Assembly (NCBI GenBank): GCA_002748505.1
Contig: PDSN01000039.1
Location: forward strand, 1-36,130
Length of the DNA stretch: 36,130 nucleotides
Source of the DNA: Gammaproteobacteria bacterium
GTDB lineage: Bacteria > Pseudomonadota > Gammaproteobacteria > Pseudomonadales > Halieaceae
Reading direction: 5' to 3'
The position numbers were made by a program, and so were the translations under genes. Under the pieces are notes generated by a model, which saw nothing but the letters and a program-made list of their open reading frames with translations, was not told the DNA's origin and searched no databases. The first letter of the stretch is position 1, and each line of letters starts with the position of its first letter. Below, in pieces: positions 2,063 through 32,324 of this stretch.

Positions 2063-2156
2063 TCGATTGTCATTTTTGACGATCATAGAATACAAGCGGT
2101 AATTGGCTGGATTGAATAGCCGGTTTTTGTTGGGCCAATGGATTTGGAAATAGGGT

Positions 2157-3197
2157 ATGACCGTTAGCATCGAACAATTAGGGCAGTCTGAAAGTGAATT
2201 GGCGAGTTGGGATGACTATGTAAAAGCCGCCGAGAACGGCACATTTTTTCATTTGTCTGGCTGGCAAACCGTGCTTAAGAAAGCCTTTGGCCACAAGCCT
2301 TTTTTTCTGCTGGCAAAGCGCGAGGGGCGCATTGTTGGTGTTTTGCCATTGGCACAGGTAAGGAGTTTTCTGTTTGGTAATCATCTGGTAGCGCTACCGT
2401 TTTGTGTATACGGTGGCGTGGTGGCCGATGATGAAGAAGCTGCAAATGCGCTTCGCGAAGCGGCCTGCGCAAAAGCCATAGAACTGAATGTTGAAGCGTT
2501 GGAGATGCGCAATATAGAGGCCACGCAAAACAGTGATTGGCCGCGAAAAGACTTGTACGTCACTTTTCGTAAAGCGATTGATCCCGATCACGACGTCAAT
2601 TTAAAAGCTATCCCCAATCGTCAGCGCGCGATGATTCGCAAGGGTATTGCCAATGGCCTGGTAAGCGAACCCAGCGACGATAGCGCGCGCTTGTATCGAG
2701 TGTATTCGGAAAGTGTGCGCAATCTGGGTACGCCGGTGTTTAGCGCTCGTTATTTTAAGGTATTGCAAGAGGTTTTTGGTGATGCTTGCCGTATTTTAAT
2801 GATTACCCACGAAGGGCGTGATGTAGCGGGAGTGATGAGTTTTTATTATAAAAATGAAGTGCTGCCCTACTATGGTGGCAGTGTCGCCGCTGCGCGCTCG
2901 ATTAAAGGCACCAATGATTTTATGTATTGGGAATTGATGCGCCGCTCTTGCGATGAGGGTCTAAGCCTGTTTGATTTTGGCCGCAGTAAAAAAGGTACGG
3001 GCGCCTACAAGTTCAAAAAGAACTGGGGTTTTCCTCCGCAGGATCTGAACTACGAGTATTTTCTGGTGAAAGCGGAAAAAATGCCAGAACTCAATCCCAA
3101 CAACCCGCGCTACGAAAAACTTATCGCGATTTGGCGTAAATTGCCGCTGTCTGTGGCGAATAGGATAGGCCCACCAGTGGCCGCGTATCTCGGGTAA
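2157..3197 (+). CDS. FemAB-family protein, PEP-CTERM system-associated type (GNAT-fold aminoacyl/peptidyl transferase-like)
   Basis: 346-aa ORF. Its position between the deacetylase and the first glycosyltransferase, its length, and the C-terminal GTNDFMYWE...FDFGRS...GAYKFKKNWGF block match my recollection of the FemAB-like member of XrtA loci. Confidence 0.7.
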   Translation: MTVSIEQLGQSESELASWDDYVKAAENGTFFHLSGWQTVLKKAFGHKPFFLLAKREGRIVGVLPLAQVRSFLFGNHLVALPFCVYGGVVADDEEAANALREAACAKAIELNVEALEMRNIEATQNSDWPRKDLYVTFRKAIDPDHDVNLKAIPNRQRAMIRKGIANGLVSEPSDDSARLYRVYSESVRNLGTPVFSARYFKVLQEVFGDACRILMITHEGRDVAGVMSFYYKNEVLPYYGGSVAAARSIKGTNDFMYWELMRRSCDEGLSLFDFGRSKKGTGAYKFKKNWGFPPQDLNYEYFLVKAEKMPELNPNNPRYEKLIAIWRKLPLSVANRIGPPVAAYLG

Positions 3198-3206
3198 GGG
3201 GGGCTT

Positions 3207-4430: not shown

Positions 4431-5988
4431 AGTTCTACCGACCTTAAGTAACACCCAGGGTCGTTACTATCGTTTTGCCCTGCTGGCCTGGACGTTGATT
4501 TGCGTGCTGGCTTTTTTTAGCACCTTTGCGACAATGGTGAACACCTGGATTGTTGCAGAAACCTATACCCACGGTTTTTTGATCGTGCCGATTTCTGCGT
4601 GGTTGCTGTGGGACGGCCGCCACCGTTATTTGAATCTGCCCATAAAACCTTGTTTGTTGCCTTTGGTTCTGCTGTTTGGCGCCAGTCTGCTGTGGTTTTT
4701 AGGCACGCTGGCTGGGGTGCAAGTGGTACAACAACTTGCGGCGGTGAGTGCCTTTATTGTCGGTGTATGGCTGATTCTGGGTTATCAGATTGCCTGGCGT
4801 ATCGCTTTTGCCCTGGCGTTCTTATTATTCGCCGTGCCCATGGGGCAGGGGTTGGTGCCTCCTATGATAGACCTCACCGCCGATGCAACGGTGTGGTTGA
4901 TAAAACTGACGGGTATTCCCATTTATCGTGAAGGTACTTTTTTTTCACTGCCCACGGGTAACTGGTCGGTGGTCGCTGCCTGTAGTGGCGTGCGCTATCT
5001 TATTGCCTCGGTCACCCTGGGTTGTTTGTACGCCTATATTACCTATCGCAGCCTGAAGAAACGTTTGGCTTTTGTGGCATTGTCGATTGTCGTGCCGGTT
5101 ATTGCCAATGTGTTTCGCGCCTTCTTGATTGTGATGATCGGTCATTTCAGTAATATGGAATTAGCCACTGGCGTGGATCATTTAATATACGGCTGGATTT
5201 TCTTTGGCGTGGTGATGCTGGTGCTGTTCAGTCTGGGTGCACGTTGGCGTGACGATATGACCGACAAACCAGCCGCCGTTGAAAAGCTACCAGATAACGG
5301 TGCGGATACCAGGACTCGCAGTTTGCCGATTGTTGGGGGACTTATGCTGGTATGTGTGCTCGCCGCGCCGTTGACTATTAAAGCGATGGATCAGCGCGCA
5401 CTGCCCGAGCAACTTGTACCACTCGCCCTGCCGTCGCGTATCAACGCCTGGCATCAGGTCGATATACCCTTTTCGTGGCAGCCCTATACTGTGGGTTCCC
5501 ACGAGCAGTTGTATCAGGCGTTTTCCGATAGTGAGACGGAGGTGGCGGTATATGTCGATTACTTCCTGTATCAGCAGGAAGGTGCAGAGGTAATCGATCG
5601 GCGCAGTCGTATTGTTGAGCCGGGTCGCAAAACACCGTGGCGAAAAACTGCGGATCTGGGTCTACAACGGGCGAACAGCGAGCCGTCTTTTGTGGTGAAT
5701 ACCTATGTGCTCACCGATGACAATCAGCGTTTGTTAGTGTGGGGGTGGTTTCGTGTGGGTGATAGCGCCACACCCAGTCCGTACATGGCAAAAATACAGG
5801 ATATTAAAAGCCGTTTGCTAGTTGGCAGGCGTGATGCGGCCAAGTTGTTTGTGGCGACAGTAATTCCCAATGAAGATCAGGGTCAGCGCCATGCTGAGCA
5901 AAAATTGCAGGCATTCGCAGAGCAGGTGCTGCCGCAAGTGATGCATGCCATTGATGCTGTGTCAGGTTGGGACAGCGATGCGCAATAA
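4423..5988 (+). CDS. xrtA: Exosortase A (XrtA) fused to a C-terminal EpsI-family domain
   Basis: 521-aa polytopic membrane protein with the exosortase catalytic-type motifs VVAACSGVRYL (Cys), ANVFRAF (Arg) and MIGHFSN (His). After about residue 300 there is one more TM helix and a soluble EpsI-like domain. The ATG overlaps the upstream stop by 8 nt, and GGGGAG lies upstream. Confidence 0.85.
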   Translation: MAEVLPTLSNTQGRYYRFALLAWTLICVLAFFSTFATMVNTWIVAETYTHGFLIVPISAWLLWDGRHRYLNLPIKPCLLPLVLLFGASLLWFLGTLAGVQVVQQLAAVSAFIVGVWLILGYQIAWRIAFALAFLLFAVPMGQGLVPPMIDLTADATVWLIKLTGIPIYREGTFFSLPTGNWSVVAACSGVRYLIASVTLGCLYAYITYRSLKKRLAFVALSIVVPVIANVFRAFLIVMIGHFSNMELATGVDHLIYGWIFFGVVMLVLFSLGARWRDDMTDKPAAVEKLPDNGADTRTRSLPIVGGLMLVCVLAAPLTIKAMDQRALPEQLVPLALPSRINAWHQVDIPFSWQPYTVGSHEQLYQAFSDSETEVAVYVDYFLYQQEGAEVIDRRSRIVEPGRKTPWRKTADLGLQRANSEPSFVVNTYVLTDDNQRLLVWGWFRVGDSATPSPYMAKIQDIKSRLLVGRRDAAKLFVATVIPNEDQGQRHAEQKLQAFAEQVLPQVMHAIDAVSGWDSDAQ

Positions 5989-7105
5989 GCACGCCGAGCG
6001 CCCCCTGGTTGTGCATGTAATCTTCGAGCTGGGTACAGGTGGTTTGGAAAATGGCCTGGTCAACATTATCAATCGTATGCCTGCTTATCGTCACGCCATC
6101 GTCTGTTTAACCCACAGTGGTATTTTTGCCGAGCGTATTACCGCCGACGTGGACATCTACGAGCTTCACAAAAAGCCCGGTCACGATCTTGGCGTGTTTT
6201 GGCGATTGTGGCGCTTGTTGACGCGGCTGCGCCCCGCGATTGTTCATACCCGCAATCTTGCGCCCCTGGAAACCCAGATTTTAGGTCTGCTGATGCCGCG
6301 GGTGAAGCGTGTGCACGGTGAACACGGTCGCGATATGGATGATCTGGATGGCAGCAATCCGCGGTATCGTTTTTTGCGTCGACTACTGCGCCCACTCATT
6401 CACCGTTACATTACCGTAAGTGAGGATTTGGCGTCTTATTTACGCTGCATAATCCGTGTGCCAGAGGCTAAAATACGGCAGATATACAACGGTGTGGATA
6501 CGTGCAAATTTAGCGCTGTCAGCAAGGCTCGTGTTGATGACCTGCCGGGAAGTTTTCAGGGTGATGTCAAAATTATTGGCACCGTAGGGCGTTTGGCGGC
6601 GGTGAAAGATCAGCCAACCCTGGTTAGAGCCTTTGCCAAAATTTGCGCAGATTACCCCGCGCGCCTGCTGCTTGTCGGCGATGGCCCCAAGCGCGGTGAG
6701 CTTGAAAACACCATCGCTGAGTTGGCTATCGGCGATAAGGTATACCTGGCAGGGGATCGCACCGATGTGCCCGCACTGTTGTCGAGTATGGACGTGTTTG
6801 TATTGCCATCATTAGCAGAGGGCATATCTAACACCATACTGGAGGCCATGGCCAGTGGTTTGCCGGTGATTGCCACCGATACCGGCGGCAATCCCGAGTT
6901 GGTGCGCGATGGCGAGAATGGCCTGTTGGTGCCGGTAGGTGATGATGACGCGCTGGCCTTGGCTCTGGCTAAGCTGCTGGCGTCTGATGGGCTGGCCCGG
7001 CAAATGGGCGAGCGCGGTCGTTGGCGTGTTCTACAGGAATTTGACTGGTCGCGCACGGTGGCGCGTTATCAGGGCGTTTATGATGAGTTGCTTGAGCGGA
7101 CTTGA
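5978..7105 (+). CDS. GT4-type glycosyltransferase, PEP-CTERM/EpsH1 system-associated (second sugar transferase)
   Basis: The ORF track starts at 5945, but MRNKHAERPLVVHVIFELGTGGLENGLVN from ATG 5978 matches the usual N-terminus. E-x7-E region EGISNTILEAMASGLPVIATDTGGNPELV. Overlaps the xrtA stop by 11 nt. Confidence 0.8.
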   Translation: MRNKHAERPLVVHVIFELGTGGLENGLVNIINRMPAYRHAIVCLTHSGIFAERITADVDIYELHKKPGHDLGVFWRLWRLLTRLRPAIVHTRNLAPLETQILGLLMPRVKRVHGEHGRDMDDLDGSNPRYRFLRRLLRPLIHRYITVSEDLASYLRCIIRVPEAKIRQIYNGVDTCKFSAVSKARVDDLPGSFQGDVKIIGTVGRLAAVKDQPTLVRAFAKICADYPARLLLVGDGPKRGELENTIAELAIGDKVYLAGDRTDVPALLSSMDVFVLPSLAEGISNTILEAMASGLPVIATDTGGNPELVRDGENGLLVPVGDDDALALALAKLLASDGLARQMGERGRWRVLQEFDWSRTVARYQGVYDELLERT

Positions 7106-7140
7106 GCGATGTATTACAGAGTGTAAATTGGTAAATTAGC

Positions 7141-9039
7141 ATGTGCGGCATTTCCGGTATTTTTGATACAACAGACAGGCGTCATTTAGATCGCGACTTA
7201 CTATCGCGAATGAATGAAACTCAGTTTCACCGCGGCCCCGACGAGGGTGGTATTCACGCCGAGCCGGGCGTGGTGCTTGGGCACAGGCGTTTATCTATTA
7301 TTGATCTGTCTCATGGCCAGCAACCCATGCTCACCGACGATGGCCGCGTGTCGTTGGTGTATAACGGTGAAATCTATAATTTCCCAGAGCTGACCGAACA
7401 ATTAAAAGCCCGGGGCTACACGTTCAGAACCCGCTGTGATACAGAGGTGATTCTATACGCCTGGTGTGAGTGGGGTGTGGATTGCGTGCAGCGTTTTCGC
7501 GGTATGTTTGCCTTTGCAATTCACGATCGCGAGCGCGGCTGTTTGTTTATGGCGCGCGATCGTTTAGGCATTAAACCGCTGTTTTATTCTCTGCTGGATA
7601 ATGGTCAGTTGGTGTTTGGTTCAGAATTAAAAGTGCTTAAGGAACACCCGCAACTGCCGCGGAAATTAAATCCCACGGCAGTGGAAGAGTATTTTGCCTT
7701 TGGCTACGTGGCCGAGCCCGACACCATCTATCAGGGCGTTTACAAAATGTCGCCGGGGCATTGCCTGCTGGTCGAGCGCGGGAAGCCTTTGGGGCAGCAG
7801 CAACAGTATTGGGATATTCCCTTTGCCAGCGCAGCGCCCATGTCCGAAGAGGAAATGCAAGCCGGACTGATTGAGCGCATGCGCGAAGCGGTGGATATTC
7901 GCATGGTGGCGGAGGTGCCATTGGGTGCGTTTTTATCCGGTGGCGTCGATTCCAGCGCTGTGGTGGCGATGATGGCGCAGCTACAGGAAGACCCCGTGCA
8001 CACCTGTGCCATCGGTTTTGATGTGGATAAATTTGACGAAACCAGCTACGCGCGCCTTGTCGCGGATCGCTATAAAACTGATCACTATGAAAAAACTGTC
8101 AGCAGCGACGATTTTGATTTAATCGACAAGCTGGGTTGGTTGTATGACGAACCTTACGCCGACAGCTCCGCCATTCCCACCTATCGCGTATGCGAATTAG
8201 CGCGCAACAAAGTAGTGGTGGCGCTTTCTGGTGATGGGGGCGATGAAAACTTAGCCGGTTATCGCCGCTACCGCTGGCACATGAATGAGGAAAAACTGCG
8301 CGGCAGATTGCCGCTGGGTTTGCGCAAAGCGGTGTTTGGCCCCCTGGGTAAATACTACCCCAAGGCCGATTGGGCGCCGCGTGTGTTCAGAGCGAAAACC
8401 ACCTTTGAGTCGCTGGCCTACAATTCTGTGGAAGCCTATTTGCACTCGGTGTCGATATGCTCCGGTGCGCAGCGTCGGGCGCTTTTTTCCGATGCCCTAA
8501 AACGCGAGCTGCAAGGCTACGATGCGATTGAGGTGTTTAATCGCCACGCTGCCAACTCGCCCACCCAGGATCCGCTGTCCCTGATTCAGTATCTGGATAT
8601 GAAAACCTATCTGGTGGGCGATATCCTTACCAAGGTTGATAGAGCGAGTATGGCGCATTCTCTGGAAGTGCGTGTGCCGCTGTTAGATCACAAATTTGTG
8701 GAGTGGACCTCATCTCTACCGGCAAACGTGAAATTGCGCGGTCAGGAAGGCAAATATATTTTGAAAAAATCCCTGGAGCCACATCTGCCCAATGATGTGT
8801 TGTACCGCCCCAAAATGGGTTTTGGCGTACCCCTGGCAAACTGGTTCAGGGGGCCACTGAGACAGCGTTTGCAAGACAGCATTGTGGAGGGCGGCCTGGC
8901 GAAGACGGGTTTGTTCAATCAAAGCTATTTGGCGGAGTTGGTGAATCAACACCTATCCGGGCGGCGCGATCACAGTGCCGCGCTCTGGACCTTACTGATG
9001 TTTGACGCCACCACTTCCGGCGAGAATTTTGGATTTTAA
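7141..9039 (+). CDS. Asparagine synthase (glutamine-hydrolysing) family amidotransferase, exosortase A-associated type
   Basis: 632 aa. N-terminal MCGISGIF (Ntn Cys nucleophile), the NGEIYN glutamine-site motif and the PP-loop SGGVDSS are all present. Confidence 0.88.
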   Translation: MCGISGIFDTTDRRHLDRDLLSRMNETQFHRGPDEGGIHAEPGVVLGHRRLSIIDLSHGQQPMLTDDGRVSLVYNGEIYNFPELTEQLKARGYTFRTRCDTEVILYAWCEWGVDCVQRFRGMFAFAIHDRERGCLFMARDRLGIKPLFYSLLDNGQLVFGSELKVLKEHPQLPRKLNPTAVEEYFAFGYVAEPDTIYQGVYKMSPGHCLLVERGKPLGQQQQYWDIPFASAAPMSEEEMQAGLIERMREAVDIRMVAEVPLGAFLSGGVDSSAVVAMMAQLQEDPVHTCAIGFDVDKFDETSYARLVADRYKTDHYEKTVSSDDFDLIDKLGWLYDEPYADSSAIPTYRVCELARNKVVVALSGDGGDENLAGYRRYRWHMNEEKLRGRLPLGLRKAVFGPLGKYYPKADWAPRVFRAKTTFESLAYNSVEAYLHSVSICSGAQRRALFSDALKRELQGYDAIEVFNRHAANSPTQDPLSLIQYLDMKTYLVGDILTKVDRASMAHSLEVRVPLLDHKFVEWTSSLPANVKLRGQEGKYILKKSLEPHLPNDVLYRPKMGFGVPLANWFRGPLRQRLQDSIVEGGLAKTGLFNQSYLAELVNQHLSGRRDHSAALWTLLMFDATTSGENFGF

Positions 9040-9048
9040 GGCAGCGCT

Positions 9049-10263
9049 ATGCATATTCTTCACATTTTGGATCATTCCATCCCACTGCACAGCGGTTATA
9101 CCTTTCGCACTCGCAATATTTTGTTACAGCAGCGTGCGCGCGGTTGGCAGACCTCGCATATTACCGGCTTGAAGCAGGGTTTTGCCAGCGAGCCAAAAGA
9201 AACCGTTGATGAGCTGACCTTTTATCGCACGCCAGCTGCCGAGGGTGTGTTGGACCGTTTGCCGGTGATTAACCAGTGGCGGGTGATAAACACCCTGGCA
9301 AAGCGTCTAAAGCAGGTTGTCGATGAGATTAAGCCCGATATTTTACACGCGCACTCACCGGCACTTAACGGTTTGGCGGCGCTTAAGGTTGCGCGCCAGA
9401 CCGGTATACCCCTGGTGTATGAATGCCGCGCATTCTGGGAAGATGCGGCGGTGGATCACGGCACCAGCAGTGAGGGGGGGCTGCGTTACAAGCTCACCCG
9501 CGCACTTGAAAGCCGTGTTTTTGCCAAAGCCGATGCGGTGACAACCATTTGTGAAGGGTTAAGAAAAGATATTGTTGCCCGCGGCATCAGCCCCGATAAG
9601 GTCACCGTGATTCCAAACGCGGTGGATATCGAAAACTTCGCCATGGATCAGCCCGTGAACCTTGATTTACAGGAAAAGCTGGGCTTGAAAGACAAGCAGG
9701 TGCTGGGTTTTATCGGTTCGTTTTACGCCTATGAAGGTCTGCCGCTGATTTTGGACGCAATGCCCGCACTGGCAAAACAGTTTCCCGATATAAAGCTGCT
9801 GTTGGTTGGCGGTGGCCCGCAGGAAGATTTGATCAAGCAAAAAACCGCAACCCTGCAGTTGCAGGATCGGGTTATTCTCACCGGCCGCGTGCCCCATAGC
9901 GAGGTGCAGGACTACTACAATCTGGTGGATATTTTTGTGTATCCGCGTCTCTCCATGCGCTTGACTGATTTGGTGACGCCATTAAAACCGCTGGAAGCCA
10001 TGGCGCAGGGGCGTTTGGTGGTAGCGTCTGACGTGGGCGGACACCAGGAATTGATAGAAAACGGTAAAACCGGCCGTTTGTTTAAGGCAGGTGATGCGAA
10101 GGATTTAGCCGCAGTGGTGGCGAAGTTGCTCGACGATGAAGAACGGTGGCCTGCGATGCGCGCTGCCGGGCGCGATTATGTGGAAAACGTGCGCAACTGG
10201 CCCAATTCGGTGGCAAATTATCAAGCCATTTACGACAAATTGCTTGCGGGAAAACGCGCGTGA
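9049..10263 (+). CDS. GT4-type glycosyltransferase, exosortase A-associated (third sugar transferase)
   Basis: 404 aa. N-terminal MHILHILDHSIPLHSGYTFRTRNIL is characteristic of the third XrtA-locus transferase as I recall it. C-terminal PLKPLEAMAQGRLVVASDVGGHQELI. Confidence 0.8.
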   Translation: MHILHILDHSIPLHSGYTFRTRNILLQQRARGWQTSHITGLKQGFASEPKETVDELTFYRTPAAEGVLDRLPVINQWRVINTLAKRLKQVVDEIKPDILHAHSPALNGLAALKVARQTGIPLVYECRAFWEDAAVDHGTSSEGGLRYKLTRALESRVFAKADAVTTICEGLRKDIVARGISPDKVTVIPNAVDIENFAMDQPVNLDLQEKLGLKDKQVLGFIGSFYAYEGLPLILDAMPALAKQFPDIKLLLVGGGPQEDLIKQKTATLQLQDRVILTGRVPHSEVQDYYNLVDIFVYPRLSMRLTDLVTPLKPLEAMAQGRLVVASDVGGHQELIENGKTGRLFKAGDAKDLAAVVAKLLDDEERWPAMRAAGRDYVENVRNWPNSVANYQAIYDKLLAGKRA

Positions 10264-11324
10264 AAATCGGTTTAGTTGGTCCTGTTCCACCGCCAGCGGG
10301 TGGTATGGCGATGCAAACCTTGCAACTCAAAGAGCTGCTGGAGAGTGAAGGGCAGAGCGTAGTCATGCTGGCCACCAACGGCCCCTACAAGCCAGCCTTC
10401 GCTGAAAAACTCAAAGGTATTCGCGCGCTGTTTCGCCTGCTGCCGTATTTAGCTGGCTTATGGAATTTATGTTCGCGCGTTGAATTGATTCACTTGATGG
10501 CAAATTCCGGTTGGTCATGGCTGCTTTTCAGTGCGCCCTGTCTAGTGATTGCCAAACTTCGCGGTACGCCGGTTATCGTCAACTATAGAGGCGGAGAAGC
10601 AGACAGTTATTTCGCCAACAACGCCTGGCATGTCAGGCCGATTATGCGCCTGGCCGCAAAGGTGATTGTGCCTTCGCGCTTTTTAAAGCATGTGTTTTTA
10701 CGCTACGACCTGCGCACCGATGTTATTCCCAATATTGTGCGTCTTGAGCGTTTTTCAGGCCAGCGCGCATCTGTGCACGATGGTGCGCATCTCGTTATTA
10801 CCCGCAATTTAGAACCTATTTACGGCATTCCCACTGCGCTAAAAGCACTGGCACTTGTTGCTGAAAAATTCCCGCAAACACACTTATCCATTGCTGGTAG
10901 TGGGCCGCAATTGGAAGAGCTTGAAACCCTGGCGGAAACCCTGGGCGTGCGGGATAAGGTTTCTTTTCTCGGGCGGCTTGATCGCGATGCGATAGACGCA
11001 CTGTACCGCAGCGCCGATGTGCTGCTCAATCCCACCACCGTGGACAATATGCCCAACTCACTGTTAGAGGCGATGGCCGCCAAAGTGTGCATTGTCAGCT
11101 CCAATGTGGGTGGTGTGCCGTTTATGGTGGAACATGAAAAAACCGCTTTGTTAACGCCGGTTGGCGATGAACAAGCGATGGCCGATGCCATATCCTGTCT
11201 ACTCACCGATGAGCTGTTGCGCAAACGACTGGTGACCGCTGCTTACAACAGTGTGCAACGCTGTGCGTGGCCCGAAGTGAAAAATCAATGGCTAAGCACG
11301 TATCAGGAGGTGCTGCGCGCATGA
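10260..11324 (+). CDS. GT4-type glycosyltransferase
   Basis: The ORF track starts at 10146 inside the previous gene. GTG 10260 forms a GTGA overlap with the upstream stop and gives VKIGLVGPVPPPAGGMA. C-terminal PNSLLEAMAAKVCIVSSNVGGVPFMVEHEKTA. Confidence 0.75.
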   Translation: MKIGLVGPVPPPAGGMAMQTLQLKELLESEGQSVVMLATNGPYKPAFAEKLKGIRALFRLLPYLAGLWNLCSRVELIHLMANSGWSWLLFSAPCLVIAKLRGTPVIVNYRGGEADSYFANNAWHVRPIMRLAAKVIVPSRFLKHVFLRYDLRTDVIPNIVRLERFSGQRASVHDGAHLVITRNLEPIYGIPTALKALALVAEKFPQTHLSIAGSGPQLEELETLAETLGVRDKVSFLGRLDRDAIDALYRSADVLLNPTTVDNMPNSLLEAMAAKVCIVSSNVGGVPFMVEHEKTALLTPVGDEQAMADAISCLLTDELLRKRLVTAAYNSVQRCAWPEVKNQWLSTYQEVLRA

Positions 11325-12670
11325 GTTTTTATACGTCTTTGGTGGCGAATATTTTATTTCCGCTGCATGAGCGCTTAAAAAAACACAGTACCATCGCTGT
11401 GCACAAGCAGATGGAAGCTACTCAGTGGTACAAGCCGGAGCATTTAGAACAACTGCGCGTACAGCGTCTGCGCACGTTTTTGCAGCGTATTGGCAAAGAT
11501 GTGCCTTATTATCGTGAACTGTTTGCCAGGCTTGAGTTTAACCCCGACACCGTCAATTCCCTGGACGATATTCAGCAATTACCCCTGATGGGCAAGCCGG
11601 AAATTCGCGGGCATTCCGACGCTATGAAAGCCGACAACGCACAGGGTCTGGCGCGATTTAACACTGGCGGTTCCAGCGGCGAGCCCTTGATTTTTTATAT
11701 TGGCAATGAGCGCGTCAGTCACGATGTGGCGGCGAAACGTCGCGCAACCCGCTGGTGGGGTGTTGATATTGGCGATCCCGAAATTGTGGTCTGGGGCTCG
11801 CCCATTGAACTGGGCGCACAGGATCGCGTGCGTATGCTGCGCGATAAACTGTTTCGCACCGAACTGTTATCAGCTTTTGAAATGACAGAGGATAATTTAA
11901 ACCATTTTGTCTCGGTCATTCGTGAAATGCGCCCCAAAATGTTGTTCGGTTATCCCTCCTCGCTATCCCATATCGCCAAACACGCCAGGCAGAAAGGCGT
12001 GCCCATGGATGACCTGGGTATAAAGGTGGCGTTTGTAACCTCTGAGCGTTTATACGACGAGCAGCGTCTGATCATTGAAGAGGTCTTCGCCTGTCCGGTG
12101 GCAAATGGCTACGGTGGCCGCGATGCGGGCTTTATCGCCCACCAATGCCCAGAGGGCAATATGCATATTACCGCTGAAGACATGCTGGTGGAAATCATTG
12201 ACAAGGACGGCAATACCCTGCCCGCAGGGCAAAGTGGTGAAATTGTCGTCACCCATTTTGCCACCGCTGATTTCCCCTTTTTGCGCTATCGCACCGGCGA
12301 TGTGGGTGTGCTGGATGACGAGTTGTGTCGCTGCGGTCGCGGTCTGCCATTGTTAAAAGAAATACAAGGCCGGACTACGGATTTTGTGGTCGCAAAAAAC
12401 GGCGCGGTGATTCACGGTCTTGCACTGATTTATATTTTGCGTGATTTGCCGGGCATCGCTGAGTTTAAGGTGGTACAGGAATCCCTGGATCTCACTCGGG
12501 TCATGTTGGTAAAAGGCCCTGATTTTGCAGCCAGTAATGAAGACGCCATCCGCGATGTTTTTCAGCAGCGCCTGGGTAAAGATGTGGATGTGGTATTTGA
12601 ATACAGCGACCTTATTCCGGCGGAAAAATCCGGCAAATTCCGGTATATCATCAGCAAAGTAGCGGTTTGA
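11321..12670 (+). CDS. Adenylate-forming enzyme of the phenylacetate-CoA ligase / CapK / coenzyme F390 synthetase-like family
   Basis: ATG 11321 forms an ATGA overlap with the upstream stop. NTGGSSGEPLIF (AMP-binding P-loop-like) and FLRYRTGDVG motifs. About 449 aa, typical for CapK-like proteins of capsule loci. Confidence 0.75.
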   Translation: MSFYTSLVANILFPLHERLKKHSTIAVHKQMEATQWYKPEHLEQLRVQRLRTFLQRIGKDVPYYRELFARLEFNPDTVNSLDDIQQLPLMGKPEIRGHSDAMKADNAQGLARFNTGGSSGEPLIFYIGNERVSHDVAAKRRATRWWGVDIGDPEIVVWGSPIELGAQDRVRMLRDKLFRTELLSAFEMTEDNLNHFVSVIREMRPKMLFGYPSSLSHIAKHARQKGVPMDDLGIKVAFVTSERLYDEQRLIIEEVFACPVANGYGGRDAGFIAHQCPEGNMHITAEDMLVEIIDKDGNTLPAGQSGEIVVTHFATADFPFLRYRTGDVGVLDDELCRCGRGLPLLKEIQGRTTDFVVAKNGAVIHGLALIYILRDLPGIAEFKVVQESLDLTRVMLVKGPDFAASNEDAIRDVFQQRLGKDVDVVFEYSDLIPAEKSGKFRYIISKVAV

Positions 12671-13770
12671 TGCGCGTTTTCCTGGCTGTCTTGCTGTGCC
12701 TGCCCTGGCTGGTCAGCGCCGAGGGCGTGGATAAAACCTTTAGCTTTGCAGATTGTCACCGCGTACAGGGCAAGGTGGTCTGTGACCCACGGGAAAAATC
12801 GACTGCCAGGCCTGTGCAAAAAAACAATCTGCAGGCCCTGGTCAATGTCACGCCAAGTGGTGGCACATTGACGATTGCACCCGGCGAATATCAGCAGGGT
12901 TTGATTCTGTACCGTCCAATTACCCTCAATATGCGAGGGGTGCATATGCATAAAGTGGTGTGGAAAAAAGCTGCGCTGATTGTCGAGCAAACAGAACCCG
13001 GCCCTATTGTTATCAATGACTATCAGCACGATGGCAGGCACTCAGATGCTGTTTACAGAAACCTGTCGGGGCTGCGCATCAGCGGGAAACAGTTTGATGT
13101 CACGTTGAATAACGCCCATATTCAACACACCGCAATGGGTGTATTGACGGACAATAAGGGCGGTAGTCTGACGATCAATGACTCGGTGATTGAAAACATC
13201 GGCGGCATTCCCGGGCAGTCCAGTCTCAGTCATATCGTATACGCGGGATTGATTGACACCCTGACCATTCAGGACACTGTCTTACGAAATTCTACGGGCA
13301 AAGGGCATTTGTTGAAGTCCCGTGCCAAACGCACCACTGTCAGTCGTTCTGAGCTTGCGGGCAAAGACGGTGAACACAGCCGTGTAATTGATATTTCCTG
13401 CGGTGGGTTTTTGGCTGTGACCAACAGTCTTTTACAGGCAAGTGCCAATGCCGATAACGCCGATCTTATTGCCATGGGCGTGGAAGCCCCGCAGAATTGC
13501 CACAACACCAGCCGCGACAATAAGGTGGTGATTACCGGCAATACCATCCTGTTTGATATACGCCATAAGCAACAACTACCCTTGGCGGATCAGATTTTTT
13601 TTAACTGGCAGGGGCCGGTGAGTTCCCTGAACGTCAGCGACAACATCATTGTCGCGCCGGGGCGGTTTTTGTGGCAGGCCCCGTGGCGTCATGTGGATAT
13701 CAGCATTCCCAAAAGCGCGAATAACTGCATTTATAAAACGCGCGAGGCGGCGGGTTTAGCGGGTTTTTGA
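12670..13770 (+). CDS. Secreted right-handed parallel beta-helix protein (putative polysaccharide lyase/epimerase/hydrolase)
   Basis: Signal peptide MRVFLAVLLCLPWLVSAEG. Repeated short N/D/T-x-hydrophobic rungs occur (LTINDSVIEN, LTIQDTVLRN, LAVTNSLLQA, VVITGNTILF, LNVSDNIIV). The start overlaps the upstream TGA by 1 nt. Confidence 0.6.
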   Translation: MRVFLAVLLCLPWLVSAEGVDKTFSFADCHRVQGKVVCDPREKSTARPVQKNNLQALVNVTPSGGTLTIAPGEYQQGLILYRPITLNMRGVHMHKVVWKKAALIVEQTEPGPIVINDYQHDGRHSDAVYRNLSGLRISGKQFDVTLNNAHIQHTAMGVLTDNKGGSLTINDSVIENIGGIPGQSSLSHIVYAGLIDTLTIQDTVLRNSTGKGHLLKSRAKRTTVSRSELAGKDGEHSRVIDISCGGFLAVTNSLLQASANADNADLIAMGVEAPQNCHNTSRDNKVVITGNTILFDIRHKQQLPLADQIFFNWQGPVSSLNVSDNIIVAPGRFLWQAPWRHVDISIPKSANNCIYKTREAAGLAGF

Positions 13771-24726: not shown

Positions 24727-25825
24727 ATGTTGGAAATAAATCCTTTGGTGCAAACCCTGAAGGACATCGAAATGCGTACCGATGTGCTTAGGGGGTATCT
24801 TTGACTACGCCGAGCGCAAGGACAGGCTGTCGGAAGTCGAATTAGAATTAGCCGAGCCCAGTGTTTGGGATGACCCCGAACGCGCCCAGGCGCTTGGCAA
24901 AGAGCGCTCAACCCTTGAAACGGTGGTGCACACTATCGAGAGTTTGACCGCGGGGGCGGGGGACGCGGCGGATATTTTAGAGTTAGCCGCTGCCGAGGAC
25001 GACGAAGACACCGTTGCCGAGGTGGAGCGGGAAATCAACGCCCTGATCGCGCAGCTGGAGAAACTGGAATTTCGCCGCATGTTCTCCGGCGAGATGGACC
25101 CCAATAACGCATATTTGGATATTCAGGCAGGCTCCGGTGGTACCGAGGCACAGGATTGGGCGGAAATGCTGCTGCGCATGTACCTGCGCTGGGGTGAGTC
25201 GCACGGCTTTGACACCCAGTTGATCGAGGTGTCCGCAGGGGAAGTGGCGGGCATCAAGAGTGCTACCATTCAGTTTGTCGGTGAGTACGCCTTCGGTTGG
25301 CTGCGCACGGAAACCGGTGTGCATCGCCTGGTGCGAAAATCCCCCTTTGATTCCGGCAATCGCCGCCATACCTCTTTTTCCTCGGTGTTTGTCTCACCGG
25401 AGATCGACGACAATATCGAGATTGACATCAATCCCGCCGACATTCGCGTGGACACTTACCGCGCCAGCGGCGCCGGTGGTCAGCATGTTAACAAGACGGA
25501 CTCGGCGGTGCGTTTGACCCACAACCCCTCGGGCATTGTGGTGCAGTGCCAGACCGAGCGTTCGCAGCATCAAAACAAAGACAACGCGATGAAGCTGCTG
25601 CGCGCCAAGCTCTACGAGATGGAAATGTTCAAACGCAATGAAGAGAAGCAGGCGATGGAAGACAGCAAGGCCGACATCGGTTGGGGCAGTCAGATTCGCT
25701 CCTACGTGCTGGATTCTTCACGTATTAAAGACTTGCGCACCGGGGTGGAGACCAGCAACACTCAGGCGGTATTGGACGGTGATTTAGATGCTTTTATTGA
25801 AGCGTCTTTAAAAAGCGGATTGTAA
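24727..25825 (+). CDS. prfB: Peptide chain release factor 2, expressed through a programmed +1 frameshift
   Basis: Frame 0 runs from ATG 24727 through CTT (24799-24801) and ends at in-frame TGA 24802-24804. The +1 frame continues from 24803 to 25825. SPF (RKSPFDS) and GGQ ([10 protein letters not shown]) motifs are present. The joined length is about 365 aa. Confidence 0.95.
24790..24805 (+). promoter_or_regulatory. prfB: prfB autoregulatory +1 frameshift site AGG GGG TAT CTT TGA C
   Basis: An internal SD-like AGGGGG, a 3-nt spacer, then the slippery CTT followed by UGA-C. This is identical in form to the E. coli site. Confidence 0.95.
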
Positions 25826-27328: not shown

Positions 27329-27502
27329 TGGCCTTCCCTGAATGGGGTGGCGAGGGCGCGATGGGGGTAGTGAAAGTGTTCACTGCTCTCATCCGTTTAG
27401 GTGGTAGACGTTCACGGTGTTTCAGACTCTCTCAGATTTTTCTGTAAATAATTCACATAAAATGTTAAGCTCCAGGGGTATCCAGTACCTAATTTGATCC
27501 AG

Positions 27503-28093
27503 ATGTTGAAAGTCCCCCATCTTGTTTTGCTGTGTTCATTCGTCTTGTTGCAGGCGTGTGGAACGCTGGGTGCTGACTCCGCAAAGAGGGGACCTGGCGC
27601 GCAGGAAATCGAGTCTGTCGTCGCGGTTGGGGAGCCAACATCCGGTGGGATTTGCCCCTCGTTTTGCAACGTGGGTCGAAGCCGTTTGATTACCTTGCTT
27701 GAGCGCGGACACAAGGCGCTGACGCGTGGTGAATACGACAAAGCCAGCAAGTTTTTTCAAGCCTATCGCCGCGCCCATCCGGGGCGGGCGGCGAGTTGGG
27801 AAGTAGAGGTGGCCGAGGTGTATATGGCTTCTTTGCCTGGCTCGCCGTTTTACAATCCCGTGCAGGCCCGTATCGCCGCCAAGGCGCTGAGCCCTTTACC
27901 GATTAAGCCTTCATCGGTGCACAGCAGTTCACTGCTGTTACATCAGATGCTTGAAGTCTTGCTGAAGGAACAGCGGGACGCCTCCAGCTTGAAAGCACAA
28001 GTGAAAACATTGAAAAACGATATCGCGGTGCGCGAAGCGGCGCTTAAGCGTTTGCGGGAGTTGACGCTTGGACAACAGGTAGGCGGACTGTAA
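27503..28093 (+). CDS. Hypothetical lipoprotein with a C-terminal coiled-coil-like tail
   Basis: Lipobox-like LLQAC after a hydrophobic h-region. No convincing RBS, and the start is uncertain (TTG 27494 or ATG 27503). The 3' end overlaps the convergent kinase gene by 50 nt. Confidence 0.45.
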
Positions 28094-29573
28094 ACGTGCT
28101 GCCTATCCCGGGTTCACTGTACACCCCAATACTGCCGCCCATCATTTGACACAATTCGCGACAAATAGCCAAACCTAAACCGCTGCCGCCATAGTTGGCG
28201 CTGGTGGATTCCTCGGCTTGTACAAAAGCTTCGAAAATTCGCGCTTGTCGCTGATGCTCTATGCCGATGCCGGTGTCGGTGACGCTAAACCACAGACTGT
28301 CGTGGCGGCCTCCGTCGAAGCCGCCGGTTACGGTGATTTCTCCATCACGGGTAAATTTGCAGGCATTGCTAAGCAGGTTGACAAAAATCTGCTTGAATTT
28401 CTGGGCATCGTTGTAAAGGGGTGGTAATTCGCGCAAATCATCCAGGGTGAGGGTATTGTTTCCGTCTTTAACCAGCGGCGTTAAATTGTCGCAGATATTT
28501 TGCAGTGTGGAGGCGGCATCAAACTCGGTGCAGTGCAGGTTCATTTTGCCGGTTTCAACTTTTGACATATCGAGAATGTCGTTAATTAAATCCAGCAGTT
28601 GGTGGCCAGACGACACAATTTTGCCAAGATCCTGTCGATGCTGTTCTTTATCCATAGAGCCACCATCGGCTAACTCATCGCTCAGCATTTCGCTATACCC
28701 GATAATTGCGTTTAACGGCGTGCGCAATTCGTGGCTGACGTTGGCGAGAAAGCTGCTCTTGGCGGCATTGGCTTTGTCGGCGGTTTCTTTGGCCTGGCGC
28801 GCCTCGTAAATCGCGCCGCGCAACTTGCCCGACATGTCGTTAAATGCGTTGGCCAGATCTCCCAGTTCGCCGTCTTCGTCGATGTCGTTGATGCGATAGT
28901 TTAAATCGCCTGAACCAAAGCGTTCCGTACCGATTTGCAGGCTCTTAAGTGACGCACGGGTATGGCGGATCAGGAAAAAACCTAAAATGGTTGTCAGGCA
29001 GGTTAAGCCAACAAAACCGATCAAGGTGATGGAGTCGGTCAGGTTAATGGTGCGGTCAATTGCCTGCGCGCGCTGGCGTGACACCAGAGCCTGTTGTTTG
29101 TCCAGCTCGGCGAGGTTTTCACTCACTACGTAAAATGGCAGTTGCTCAGAAACCCTGGTTTTAAACATCGGGTCATTGTAACGTTCGTAAAACTGATGCC
29201 ACTGATTAAGCAGTTGATCGCCACTTTTTTTAAGTTGTTGAAATTTTGTTTCGTTGGTGTTGTGGGTCAGTTTACCCAATTTGGTGATGTGCCTGCTTAT
29301 ATCATTTAGTCCGGCTTCGGCTTGCAGGTATTCCTCATTTTCCAAAGGGTCATCGGTGGTATCACGCAGGGTTTCCAGCACCAGAACCTGCTGTCGTTGC
29401 GCTTCGAGCAACTGTTTAATTTCTTCGGACAGACGCGCCGCCTCAACGGTAGCGCGGAAAGCCATCATGCTCTGATGTCGCGCATAACTGCCCCAAAAGT
29501 GGGTTCCTACATTGATGGCAATAACAACTAAAATCGCCAGAAGCGAAAGAGTAAGACGGTGGGTAAGGCTCAT
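28044..29573 (-). CDS. Membrane sensor histidine kinase (periplasmic helical sensor, HAMP, HisKA, HATPase_c)
   Basis: Two TM segments flank a helical region of about 170 aa. H-box [19 protein letters not shown]-box [11 protein letters not shown]-boxes DTGIGI and GGSGLGLAI. Confidence 0.88.
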
Positions 29574-29944
29574 TGGGGTCGAAGTCGCTCTATTTTTTCC
29601 AGCAGGGCAGGGAAGTCTACGGGTTTTGTGGCGTAATCGCTACAGCCTGCTTCAAAGGCTGCATCGCGGTGAGTATCCATGGCATGTGCGGTCAGTGCGA
29701 TGATGGGAATCCAGGCGATCTCGGGATCCTGGCGAGCATTGCGGCAGGCCGTCCAACCATCCATTACTGGCAGGTTGATGTCCATCAGCACCAGATCGGG
29801 TTGTTCGCTGGCCATTTTTTCCAGTGCTTGCTGACCGTTGCTGGCGGTGATGACATTAAACCCGGCACGCCTCAGGCGGCGCACCAGCATATCGCGGTTC
29901 ATTTCATTGTCTTCAACCAGTAATACGCGTGTCGTCTTACTCAC
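29570..29944 (-). CDS. Single-domain response regulator (CheY-like receiver)
   Basis: [14 protein letters not shown], phospho-acceptor in LVLMDINLP, and LTAH...KP. GTG 29944 forms a GTGA overlap with the upstream stop (ATG 29974 is an alternative). Its stop forms an ATGA overlap with the kinase start. Confidence 0.85.
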
Positions 29945-31380
29945 GGCAGCTCTCTCTTTATCTGGTGTATACACAGGGGTTCCTGTACGCCCTTAACCTG
30001 CACATTTCGAGAAAAGCCTAAGATGTATCGTCCCGACAAGGCATCCAGGGTGGCCTGGGAGGCGATCACCATACCGCCGTGGGCGTGTTCCTCTATACGC
30101 GAAGTCACATTCATAGGATGCCCGACAAATCCATATTTGCTACGTTTTTTTGAGCCAATATTACCAGCTACAACCACACCTGTATTCAGGGCGATGCCGC
30201 TTTCCAGTACGGGAAGGTTTTCCTTGATATTGGCGGCGTTGATATCCGCCATAGCTGCCTGCATGGCCAGTGCGCAGCGCACTGCGCGATCGGCATCATC
30301 CGGGCGTCGCTGCGGTGCGCCAAACACCGCTAAAATAGCATCACCCAAAAACTCATCAATAGTACCCTGATGCTCGATGATGATATCGGCCATCGCGCCG
30401 AGGTAGCGGTTCAGTACCTTCACTACCTTTGCCGCCGGAAGACCTTCGCAAATGCTGGTAAAACCGCGAATATCCGACATCATAATAGTTACTTCGCGCA
30501 GGTCGCCACCCATATCCAGACCCTGGGGATGTTCCAGAATATCGGTAACGATTTCATCGGAGAGATAACGTCCAAAAATATCGCGAATAAACTTTTCTTT
30601 GCGCTCAAGCTCGGCGCGGTAGCTCTGTTCCCGGTTGTGCCAACGCTTGCGTTCAATGCCGGCTTTGATTCGCGCCTGCAACAGCACGGGGTTGAAGGGC
30701 TTGAACAGGTAGTCCTCGGCGCCGGTTTCAATACACTGGATGATACCCGCCATGTCCTGACGGCCGGAGATGACGACCACCGGTGTGGCGCGCCATTGCG
30801 GATGCTCTTTAATGCGTTTTAGCGTCTCACGACCGTCAAGCCCGGGCATAATGAGATCTAAAAGCACCACGTCGACATCCGTTGTGGCGAGGGTGTCTAT
30901 CGCTTCTTCACCCGATGCGGCGGTGATAACCGTATGTCCCATGCGAGTGAGGTAGCGGGCAATCAGGTCTCGGTTTTCCCGACGATCATCCACCGCCAGA
31001 ATAAAACCAGGGTCTGAACTCCTGCCGGGGTTCTTGTGGCGTTGATCCGATTGTCCACTGCTTTCGATGGCGAGTATGGTTTTGTGCAGCCGACTTAAGC
31101 CTTCGTACAGATCAACGGAGCTGCCGCAGAGGTCTTCCAGCAACAGTTCCGTGTAGCCTTTGATAACGCCCAGTGTATTTAATACCTCGTGCCGATCGCG
31201 ACGGGGAGTGGCAAACAGTTGGTTGATTTGCGCTGCGGCGGTGAACAGTTTGCTAAAGTCCGCGGCCGAGGCCTCATCGAGCTCGCCGCGCCACAGCGAT
31301 AACTGCTGGCGCAGATCGGCAATGGCGCGCAACAGATGGTCGCTCCACAGATCTTCGGTTATGTTTGGGGTGCTCTTCAT
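29941..31380 (-). CDS. H-box-containing helical domain + receiver (REC) + class III nucleotidyl cyclase
   Basis: 479 aa. Residues about 60-82 read RDRHEVLNTLGVIKGYTELLLED. REC contains VVLLDLIMPGLDG. The cyclase domain has MMSDIRGFT, GTIDEFLGDAILAVFGAP and KYGFVGHPMNVTSRIE. Confidence 0.85.
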   Translation of the reverse strand: MKSTPNITEDLWSDHLLRAIADLRQQLSLWRGELDEASAADFSKLFTAAAQINQLFATPRRDRHEVLNTLGVIKGYTELLLEDLCGSSVDLYEGLSRLHKTILAIESSGQSDQRHKNPGRSSDPGFILAVDDRRENRDLIARYLTRMGHTVITAASGEEAIDTLATTDVDVVLLDLIMPGLDGRETLKRIKEHPQWRATPVVVISGRQDMAGIIQCIETGAEDYLFKPFNPVLLQARIKAGIERKRWHNREQSYRAELERKEKFIRDIFGRYLSDEIVTDILEHPQGLDMGGDLREVTIMMSDIRGFTSICEGLPAAKVVKVLNRYLGAMADIIIEHQGTIDEFLGDAILAVFGAPQRRPDDADRAVRCALAMQAAMADINAANIKENLPVLESGIALNTGVVVAGNIGSKKRSKYGFVGHPMNVTSRIEEHAHGGMVIASQATLDALSGRYILGFSRNVQVKGVQEPLCIHQIKRELP

Positions 31381-31575
31381 GGTGGGTTAGAACCCCTCTG
31401 GTATTGATGATTCAGCCAGACCGAAGTATACACAGTAAAGCACGCATTTATAGTGTGTTCACAGTAAACTTTGCGTTACTATTGTTTTGTTACTTTGGCA
31501 TATTGGTGGTCGATTCGCAGCTTGGTTTTGTTAGAATCGGTAACCGACGAAATCCATCAGATCACAGGACGAGAC

Positions 31576-32223
31576 ATGATTGATAAGGTAGAACTCTTTC
31601 AAGGGTTGGCGGCCGAGGAATTGGAAGCATTAATGGCGAGCAGCAGTATGCGCTCCTTTCCTAAAAACACCGTGGTGATTCACGAGAATGATCCCGCTGA
31701 CTCGCTGTTCATCATTGACTCTGGCAAGGTGAAAGTGTACTGCTCAGACAAAAACGGTAAAGAGTTCATCATGAACACCGAAGGTCCCGGCGATTATTTT
31801 GGTGAGTTGGCGTTGCTTGATGACGCTACCCGCTCCGCCAGTGTTCGCACCGTAGAGAAGTCTTCTTTCATTATTATCTACAAGGATGACTTCAATCGTG
31901 TGCTGGACAACCACCCCAACATCGCCAGACAACTTATCACTAATCTCGCTCAGCGTGTGCGTAAACTCACTGCCGATGTTAAGAGTCTCGCATTGCAGGA
32001 CGTCTATGGTCGCGTAGCCAACGTGTTGATGGATATGTCAGAGGAGCGCGGCGATGGCACTTCGTTCATCCCCGAAAAACTTACCCAGCAGGATATCGCC
32101 GACCGCGTTGGTGCGTCCCGGGAAATGGTGGCGCGTATTTTAAAAGATCTCACTATTGGTGAATATATTCGCTTCGAGGGTCGCCACATTATTATTAACA
32201 CCCGTTTGCCGGCAAAATACTAA
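31576..32223 (+). CDS. CRP/FNR-family cyclic-nucleotide-binding transcriptional regulator
   Basis: ATG 31576 with AGGA upstream. cNMP phosphate-binding cassette FGELALLDDATRSASV. C-terminal HTH DIADRVGASREMVARILKDL with the CRP-type R-E-x-x-x-R. Confidence 0.85.
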   Translation: MIDKVELFQGLAAEELEALMASSSMRSFPKNTVVIHENDPADSLFIIDSGKVKVYCSDKNGKEFIMNTEGPGDYFGELALLDDATRSASVRTVEKSSFIIIYKDDFNRVLDNHPNIARQLITNLAQRVRKLTADVKSLALQDVYGRVANVLMDMSEERGDGTSFIPEKLTQQDIADRVGASREMVARILKDLTIGEYIRFEGRHIIINTRLPAKY

Positions 32224-32324
32224 ACTATTTTTCTTTTTTTGCTTTGATGGTGTCGCAACATTTGCGTTTGCTGAGGCGCGATGTTTTTTGCGGGCGTTTG
32301 CCAGGCGCCCGCTGTAGTGTTAGT

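Follow-up and report, generated by a model that had tools for sequence, protein, structure and literature searches.

Two divergent genes in contig PDSN01000039.1, from a gammaproteobacterium of the Halieaceae, raise the question of whether a class III nucleotide cyclase and the CRP-like transcription factor encoded beside it form a circuit that signals through cyclic guanosine monophosphate (cGMP) rather than cyclic adenosine monophosphate (cAMP). We refer to the whole stretch of DNA that was analysed, 36,130 nucleotides in length, as the window, and all window coordinates are given on its forward strand. A sequence-only reading of the window had called the locus a candidate bacterial cGMP circuit. 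Our analysis upholds two parts of that proposal, namely a cyclase of the type of Synechocystis Cya2 and its conserved pairing with a CRP-like gene, whereas the argument on how the regulator reads the purine turned out to be wrong; cGMP as the messenger is what we infer. The elements on which the argument depends are as follows.

31576 to 32223, forward strand: gene of the CRP-like transcription factor (215 amino acids), which combines a cyclic-nucleotide-binding domain with a CRP-type helix-turn-helix and is presumed to be the receptor for what the cyclase makes.
31381 to 31575, not assigned to a strand: intergenic region of 195 bp shared by the CRP-like gene and the cyclase operon, with divergent promoters.
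29941 to 31380, reverse strand: cyclase gene (479 amino acids), encoding HisKA-like helices, a receiver and a class III cyclase domain.
31051 to 31380, reverse strand: N-terminal helical domain of the cyclase (residues 1-110), HisKA/DHp-like, lacking an ATPase domain, with the invariant His64.
30667 to 31002, reverse strand: receiver (REC) domain of the cyclase (residues 127-238), Pfam Response_reg at 8.8e-28, with the phospho-acceptor Asp175.
29977 to 30498, reverse strand: class III catalytic domain of the Cya2 type (residues 295-468), Pfam Guanylate_cyc (PF00211) at 2e-23.
30352 to 30354, reverse strand: codon GAG of Glu343, the first purine-specifying residue, which is Lys in adenylyl cyclases.
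30130 to 30132, reverse strand: codon GGA of Gly417, the second purine-specifying residue, which is Asp or Thr in adenylyl cyclases.

The answer begins with the identity of the catalytic domain. When this region was compared with all PDB sequences by phmmer, the best natural match was Synechocystis Cya2, a proven guanylyl cyclase (2W01, E = 4.8e-56), to which it aligns without a gap over 183-185 residues at 53% identity. The sole better match, 6FHT, is an engineered phytochrome-Cya2 fusion in which the specificity Glu has been changed to Lys. All eight functional residues tabulated for Cya2 (PMC6005667) are identical in the window cyclase at a constant offset of 145: D303, R305, E343, D347, G417, N424, R428 and K463 correspond to D448, R450, E488, D492, G562, N569, R573 and K608 of Cya2. 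The metal-binding Asp pair (D303 and D347) and the transition-state Asn and Arg (N424 and R428), which had been described as intact, are among them. The motifs quoted in the sequence-only reading occur at the residues then assigned to them, with MMSDIRGFT at 300-308, GTIDEFLGDA at 339-348, FLGDAIL at 344-350 and KYGFVGHPMNVTSR at 415-428, the last of which contains MNVTSR at 423-428; the codons of Glu343 and Gly417 had also been read correctly. In addition, the claim that the two specificity residues depart from those of adenylyl cyclases holds in HMMER alignments to solved structures. Glu343 and Gly417 align with Glu488 and Gly562 of Cya2, whereas in the two adenylyl cyclases compared, CyaB of P. 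aeruginosa and CyaC of Spirulina, the former position is the Lys of 'D-K-F-V-G-D' and the latter is Thr.

The AlphaFold2 model of the cyclase, with a mean predicted local distance difference test score (pLDDT) of 73.6 and mostly 80-94 in the catalytic core, shows four helices at the N-terminus, followed by the folds of a receiver and of a cyclase. By Foldseek, it matches 2W01 with a template modelling (TM) score of 0.88 and a root-mean-square deviation of 1.7-1.9 Å, and many class III structures with TM scores of 0.82-0.89. We take the close homology of the catalytic domain to Cya2 as strongly supported; the domain is more than a cyclase that happens to carry a Glu. Reviews including PMC6005667 ascribe to Cya2 a strong preference for GTP, with the Glu as the base selector and few substitutions leading to ATP use. 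The window cyclase, judged by its residues, probably prefers GTP as well.

The Glu/Gly pair is not a peculiarity of the window. In 24 diverse homologues there is no variation at Glu343, Gly417, the metal Asp residues, the Asn/Arg pair, Asp175, Lys227 or His64, and among 88 distinct related loci the pair is found in 86, Glu in 87, and the composite signature H-D-D-E-D-G-N-(S/A)-R in 86. A HMMER scan of 1.84 billion cluster representatives (50% identity) gave 6522 at E <= 1e-30. The best 150 of these are 43-59% identical to the window cyclase and have many architectures; they carry Glu/Gly in 125 cases, Glu/Ala in 14 and Glu/Ser in 5, and retain the catalytic D, D, N and R in 148. Since the pair is invariant in the 24 members and present in 86 of the 88 loci and 125 of the 150 representatives, its occurrence here is not due to chance. 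According to PMC6005667, a 'Cya2-like bacterial GC subgroup' (GC, guanylyl cyclase) was proposed in the Cya2 structure paper, and the predominance of Glu/Gly among the nearest relatives therefore places the window cyclase in it. This Glu/Gly class is very large and is annotated solely as 'adenylate/guanylate cyclase': none of the 3592 cyclase homologues at E <= 1e-20 has a specific functional name, and relatives bear generic database names, one example being 'adenylate/guanylate cyclase domain-containing response regulator'.

The second element is the putative reader of the cyclase product. As the sequence-only reading described, it is a protein of 215 amino acids encoded divergently at a distance of 195 bp, and it contains FGELAL, RSAS and SREMVAR. 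Pfam assigns cNMP_binding (PF00027) to residues 26-113 at 1.4e-26 and HTH_Crp_2 (PF13545) to residues 145-208, together with PF00325. Its nearest solved relatives are M. tuberculosis Rv3676 (3.7e-32) and C. glutamicum GlxR (5e-31); E. coli CAP, Vfr and Clr (2.8e-19 for Clr) rank behind them. Because its score against the NCBIfam CRP equivalog NF008732 is 130.4 bits and the cut-off is 266, the regulator is not a canonical CRP/Vfr orthologue. The AlphaFold model is of moderate quality (pLDDT 75), with the domain orientation off, and bears on the fold rather than on individual residues of the pocket; it places Leu131 and Thr132 on a long C-helix (114-135). Foldseek confirms the CRP fold, with GlxR, Mtb CRP, Clr and CAP as the best matches.

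We aligned 120 family members with CAP and Rv3676 by MAFFT. The CAP residues G71, E72, R82 and S83 correspond to G76, E77, R86 and S87 of the regulator, and R180, E181 and R185 to R182, E183 and R187, in all 120 members. The regulator thereby carries both the E(X)nR[ST] phosphate-binding signature defined for cyclic-nucleotide-dependent CRPs (PMC10187061) and the R-E-x-x-x-R recognition helix. The residues that read the purine are a different matter. The sequence-only reading had equated CAP Thr127-Ser128 with Thr-Ala (in KLTAD), which is off by one; both the ungapped HMMER alignment with Rv3676 and the MAFFT alignment with CAP give Leu131-Thr132. Leu is found in all 120 members at the first position and Thr in 119 at the second, and the nine residues G76, E77, R86, S87, L131, T132, R182, E183 and R187 are kept in 83 of 84 loci. 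For comparison, the C-helix pair is Thr-Ser or Thr-Thr in Gram-negative CRPs, Thr-Asn in actinobacteria and Leu-Asn in SYCRP1 (PMC10187061). In Clr, the first Thr of the pair forms a hydrogen bond with O6 of syn-cGMP, which is impossible for Leu131 because Leu replaces this Thr. As judged from the alignment, the Leu-Thr pair is compatible with altered nucleotide specificity but does not single out cGMP. In CRP, the discrimination between cAMP and cGMP is reportedly reduced when positions 127 and 128 are hydrophobic.

Across the Halieaceae the regulator is 84-91% identical, compared with 79-85% for guaB, 54-65% for the cyclase and 48-62% for the kinase. Conservation as strong as that of guaB is in keeping with a regulator that acts on many targets. 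In our judgement, it is likely that this protein reads the cyclase product.

Is the pairing of the two genes itself conserved? A scan with one genome per GTDB species gave 80 best loci, all in Halieaceae-type genomes, nearly all of them labelled as Halieaceae genera or as unclassified Gammaproteobacteria; the genera include Halioglobus, Haliea, Parahaliea, Congregibacter, Chromatocurvus, Pseudohaliea, Seongchinamella and Mangrovimicrobium. Wherever the contig suffices, the Halieaceae gene order is guaB, xseA, the divergent CRP-like gene, cyclase, REC, kinase, an open reading frame (ORF) of 199 amino acids, and lysS. By itself, this order is vertical synteny and weak evidence for functional pairing. 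We also searched with relatives of the same architecture at 40-47% identity and inspected seven distant loci. Six of the seven, which are of the Oceanicoccus type or other Cellvibrionales types, keep the CRP-like gene together with those of the cyclase, REC and kinase; they are Oceanicoccus sagamiensis and five metagenomic or metagenome-assembled-genome contigs. In L085 to L087, the three loci compared, the cyclase is 48-51% and the CRP-like protein 70-75% identical to those of the window, the Leu-Thr pair is kept and the SREMVAR helix is identical. Several distant loci have changed flanks, with SirB or SirB and HicAB inserted upstream and lysS and prfB replaced downstream. In L085, L089 and L090, xseA and the CRP-like gene are separated by the SirB-family gene, at about 3600-4300, and in L085 (O. 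sagamiensis, CP019343) a HicA/HicB toxin-antitoxin pair is inserted as well, at 4313-4890. By these insertions, the junction of the CRP-like and cyclase genes has been kept while the flank is plastic.

Of the 88 distinct loci overall, 85 extend far enough upstream, and 84 of these have the divergent CRP-like gene. The exception, L088, encodes a 621-amino-acid REC-cyclase paralogue that has neither the H-box His nor a CRP-like neighbour and carries Gln at the first specificity position (GTIDQFMGD). We take the pairing of cyclase and regulator to be supported by sequence conservation across deep divergence. In L088, the paralogue gene lies directly downstream of a gene for a multi-PAS hybrid histidine kinase of 1455 amino acids (1607-7866).

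The question of what drives the cyclase leads to its N-terminus and to the two genes behind it.

29570 to 29974, reverse strand: single-domain response regulator (REC only), Pfam Response_reg at 1.7e-28; its ORF overlaps the 3' end of the cyclase gene.
28044 to 29573, reverse strand: membrane sensor histidine kinase, with HAMP at residues 200-252, HisKA at 271-342 and HATPase_c at 389-500 (Pfam).

The real start of the stand-alone REC gene may lie a few codons further downstream. The kinase has two transmembrane segments and then a periplasmic region of about 150 amino acids before HAMP, and its start overlaps the stop codon of the stand-alone REC gene. These two genes and the cyclase gene overlap or adjoin one another and thus form one operon. 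Both the cyclase and the CRP-like ORF open with ATG, the latter at 31576. Terminator-like hairpins are located right after the stop codons of the kinase gene (28023-28035, reverse strand) and the CRP-like gene (32262-32281, forward strand), which fits two separate transcription units.

The N-terminal helices of the cyclase are modelled at residues 7-29, 36-57, 63-83 and 89-108 with pLDDT of about 80-88. His64 resides in the H-box-like RHEVLNTLGVIKGYTELL, for which the family form is RH(D/E)(L/V)xN; relatives at 40-47% identity retain RH(D/E)(L/I)RN around it. Pfam HisKA matches 21 of 24 family members at E <= 0.01, at best with 1.3e-05, at or below the Pfam cut-off, and residues 51-79 of the window cyclase give a weak match to SPOB_a (E = 0.007). 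In the receiver domain, the phospho-acceptor D175 and K227 are invariant. The stand-alone REC gene directly follows the cyclase gene in every related locus, and the kinase is syntenic everywhere; it is non-hybrid in Halieaceae, whereas Oceanicoccus-type loci have a hybrid kinase with an extra REC and still contain the stand-alone REC. Together, the kinase, the stand-alone REC and the HisKA-like domain suggest a putative His-Asp-His-Asp relay that ends on Asp175 of the cyclase. The HisKA-like domain may instead serve only to dimerise the cyclase.

We can thus outline how the system might operate. The membrane histidine kinase would sense a periplasmic or membrane cue, and phosphoryl groups would pass via the stand-alone receiver protein, possibly also through His64 of the cyclase in a Spo0F/Spo0B-like relay, to Asp175 of its receiver domain. 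Phosphorylation would then switch the dimeric Cya2-type catalytic domain, presumably activating rather than inhibiting it, so that GTP is converted to 3',5'-cGMP. The CRP-like protein would bind the cyclic nucleotide, preferably cGMP, in its phosphate-binding cassette and change transcription via its CAP-like recognition helix. For this model as a whole, comprising a kinase-driven relay, a Cya2-type guanylyl cyclase and a CRP-like reader, we see an even chance.

To evaluate the shared promoter region, about 79 orthologous intergenic regions were aligned. Towards the cyclase gene, the conserved promoter blocks are TTTCCA and, after about 18 nucleotides, TATACT. Towards the CRP-like gene, there is a conserved block with the -10-like AAACTTTGGGTTACTAT(TG), and a -10-like TACTAT or TATTGT occurs within the conserved AAACTTTGGGTTACTATTG; further blocks are GGTGCG at about -37 to -32 and TTTTGC at about -51. 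The window has the promoter-like TTCACA-16-TATTGT at 31458-31485. The conserved elements near -41.5 could be an activator site, though they are non-palindromic. The alignment contains no conserved palindrome, and a search of the window for TGTGA-N6-TCACA with at most 2 mismatches gave 10 matches, compared with 12.7 expected, and none in the intergenic region.

Some features of this region are particular to the window. A 16-bp near-palindrome, TAGTGTGTTCACAGTA, with a TGTG-TT-CACA core, is located at 31450-31465 and overlaps the -35 element predicted for the promoter of the CRP-like gene; only the window has it, and other genera carry GGTGCG at the same position. The leader from the promoter block to the ATG of the CRP-like gene measures 106 nucleotides, about 45 more than in most relatives (about 61). 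It contains (at 31484-31575) a direct repeat of GTTTTGTTA, starting at 31484 and 31525, and has no Rfam match; in the window as a whole, no RNA family of Rfam was matched.

Several of our observations weigh against a dedicated cGMP circuit, and they have to be considered together with the other explanations of the locus. Tyr572 of Cya2, which adjoins the transition-state Arg and is reported to enhance guanylyl but not adenylyl cyclase activity greatly (PMC4215837), is Ser427 in the window cyclase, and this Tyr is kept in merely 5 of the 125 Glu/Gly representatives, in which Ser, Ala or Gly is usual. Class III specificity is not reliably predictable from two residues; mutants of Ma1120 gave mixed outcomes (PMC4215837). 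Cya2 is also said to have similar affinity for ATP and GTP (PMC4215837). As for the regulator, its Leu-Thr pair differs from Thr-Ser in the cGMP receptor CgrA and from Thr-Thr in Clr. SYCRP1, which binds cAMP, also has Leu at the Thr127 position. The wiring could thus be as outlined above and the nucleotide another one: the cyclase would make mainly cAMP, or cAMP together with cGMP, and the regulator would be a cAMP or dual receptor of the Clr or Vfr kind with a global role. Besides the Ser, the stated affinities and the Leu of SYCRP1, this explanation draws on the generic cyclic-nucleotide cassette that the regulator retains, on Rv3676 and GlxR, its nearest solved relatives, being cAMP receptors, on Clr accepting both nucleotides, and on the very high conservation expected of a global regulator. 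What speaks for GTP nevertheless is that the adenine-selecting residue is Lys and not Glu in CyaB and CyaC, that Glu is present in 87 of 88 loci, that ATP use by Cya2 needs few residues replaced, this Glu among them, and that the Glu/Gly pair has been held fixed by selection across the subfamily. We therefore regard cAMP or mixed signalling as possible and rather unlikely.

A different explanation would leave the chemistry of the cyclase aside and regard the two genes as an inherited neighbourhood only, such that the cyclase product acts via other effectors and the regulator responds to another signal or is independent of ligand in the manner of CRP*. The arrangement guaB-xseA-CRP-like gene-cyclase indeed reflects mainly vertical inheritance inside a single order, and this counts for less than independent re-assortment would; the whole block from guaB through xseA, the CRP-like gene, cyclase, REC and kinase to lysS is syntenic across Halieaceae, housekeeping genes included, and the regulator evolves far more slowly than the cyclase (84-91% as opposed to 54-65% identity). 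In addition, T127L and T127I are described in the literature on E. coli CRP as CRP* alleles with a lower cAMP requirement, so that the regulator could be partly ligand-independent, and autoregulation of the CgrA kind is not supported, as a CAP-type palindrome was not found in the shared promoter region. However, the pairing persists where the flanks have been rearranged or replaced, the sole related cyclase locus that lacks the CRP-like gene is that of a paralogue lacking the Glu, and the invariant phosphate-binding residues argue for a bound cyclic nucleotide. Mere neighbourhood is accordingly an improbable account of the locus. We also considered a Pycsar-like anti-phage system, in which a pyrimidine cyclase acts with a cyclic-nucleotide-binding effector, as the PycC models of PADLOC match the cyclase domain (2e-20 at best) and its PycTIR and effector models match the cyclic-nucleotide-binding domain of the regulator. 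These matches are generic and far weaker than that to Cya2 (2e-20 against 4.8e-56); the partner has a DNA-binding helix-turn-helix and no TIR or membrane effector; in every genome examined the locus has a fixed chromosomal position among housekeeping genes, unlike defence islands; and the cyclase is under two-component control. On the generic matches, the helix-turn-helix partner and the fixed position, a Pycsar defence system was rejected, and its probability is negligible.

The kinase-driven cGMP circuit with a CRP-like reader thus remains our preferred model of this locus. One may extend it to the lineage and suppose that in Halieaceae (the OM60/NOR5 clade) and Cellvibrionales-type relatives, which are abundant in the sea, cGMP is a principal second messenger. 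Its Cya2-type cyclase would stand at the end of a four-step His-Asp-His-Asp relay built into the enzyme, and its reader would be a cGMP-specific global regulator from a Leu-Thr subclass of CRPs that had gone unrecognised. We offer this extension only tentatively and consider it doubtful.

How does the locus compare with known systems? The window cyclase belongs to the same class III subfamily as Cya2 of Synechocystis sp. PCC 6803 (2W01), with the same D, R, E, D, G, N, R and K, Glu/Gly included. Apart from having Ser427 in place of Tyr572, it differs in its input, since Cya2 sits in the membrane and has a CHASE2 sensor (PMC6005667) whereas the window cyclase is soluble with HisKA-like and REC inputs. 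According to a 2023 CRP review, the receptor for the cGMP made by Cya2 is not yet known; the window cyclase, in contrast, has a conserved CRP-like neighbour.

The closest parallel to the gene pair is found in R. centenum, in which the GcyB/GcyC cyclase genes are likewise linked to a CRP homologue, CgrA, that uses a non-classical cyclic nucleotide and likewise keeps the CAP phosphate-binding signature and recognition helix. That circuit is alphaproteobacterial, with cgrA in one operon with the cyclase subunit genes, whereas the genes of the window are divergent, and it includes a perfect TGTGA-N6-TCACA site that gives rise to a feed-forward loop, unlike the intergenic region of the window. By published residues, on which the comparison with CgrA relies, CgrA has Thr-Ser and Arg-Thr where the regulator has Leu-Thr and Arg-Ser. 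We consider the window locus comparable to Gcy-CgrA, by analogy, in its logic; it differs in enzyme type, input, gene arrangement and C-helix pair.

Clr of S. meliloti (7PZA/7PZB), a CRP that accepts both cAMP and cGMP, shares its fold and its phosphate-binding residues with the regulator, from which it is detectable by sequence (2.8e-19) and by structure. Its Thr at the position equivalent to Ser128 contacts the base from the other subunit, and the regulator also has Thr there; the pair as a whole is Thr-Thr in Clr and Leu131-Thr132 in the regulator. E. coli CAP/CRP has the same domain organisation, with G71, E72, R82, S83, R180, E181 and R185 conserved in the regulator, of which the natural Leu131 mimics the E. 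coli laboratory allele T127L. On the input side, the Spo0F-Spo0B-Spo0A relays of Bacillus likewise consist of a kinase, a stand-alone receiver, a helical domain with a conserved His and no ATPase domain, and a final receiver that controls the output; in the window locus, unlike the Spo0 relay, the HisKA-like domain and the last receiver form one protein with the output enzyme. In X. campestris, also a gammaproteobacterium, the class III guanylyl cyclase XC_0250 is said to be encoded beside a cyclic-nucleotide-binding GGDEF protein, XC_0249. By this description, the receptor there would be a diguanylate cyclase and not a CRP-type factor.

Established bacterial cGMP signalling amounts to a handful of cases, namely CgrA of R. 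centenum, Clr of S. meliloti, X. campestris and Cya2 of Synechocystis. The 2023 CRP review lists Clr and CgrA, both alphaproteobacterial, as the only cGMP-activated CRPs. If the lineage-wide extension of our model is true, Gammaproteobacteria would have their first cGMP-CRP pair, and a receptor type would for the first time be identified for Cya2-family cyclases. Our literature search, which left several key bacterial guanylyl cyclase papers outside its reach, found no paper tying Halieaceae to cGMP. Here, marine bacteria that can be cultivated and are of ecological importance pair a Cya2-type cyclase with a dedicated CRP-like protein of high conservation, and complete genomes are available for hosts of the cassette such as Halioglobus maricola, Congregibacter variabilis and Oceanicoccus sagamiensis. 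The system is therefore tractable for asking whether Glu/Gly cyclases signal via cGMP and what reads it. Should the product be cAMP, the locus would be a warning against predicting cyclase specificity from two residues.

One further gene of the neighbourhood may be connected with the kinase.

27494 to 28093, forward strand: conserved ORF of 199 amino acids, a probable lipoprotein, convergent with the kinase gene and overlapping its last 50 nucleotides.

Because its N-terminal signal peptide ends in LLQAC, we regard the product as a probable lipoprotein; it has no match in Pfam or PADLOC. All Halieaceae loci have the ORF in syntenic position, at 29-43% identity, and Oceanicoccus-type loci lack it; in L087 its position is occupied by a gene for 185 amino acids that has no Pfam match. 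It could be accessory to the periplasmic sensor of the kinase, and its membership in the system is uncertain.

Two other parts of the window deserve a brief description. A long polysaccharide locus of the exosortase/PEP-CTERM type extends over 34-13770 on the forward strand, with genes for a UDP-GlcNAc 2-epimerase, a polysaccharide deacetylase with DUF3473, a GNAT protein, several GT4 glycosyltransferases, the exosortase EpsH with DUF3485 (4423-5988), an asparagine synthase and an AMP-binding protein. The prfB (RF-2) ORF, at 24782-25825 on the forward strand, encodes 347 amino acids, compared with the 365 called in orthologues of related loci, and this difference in length is the signature that would be expected of a programmed +1 frameshift near the start of prfB.

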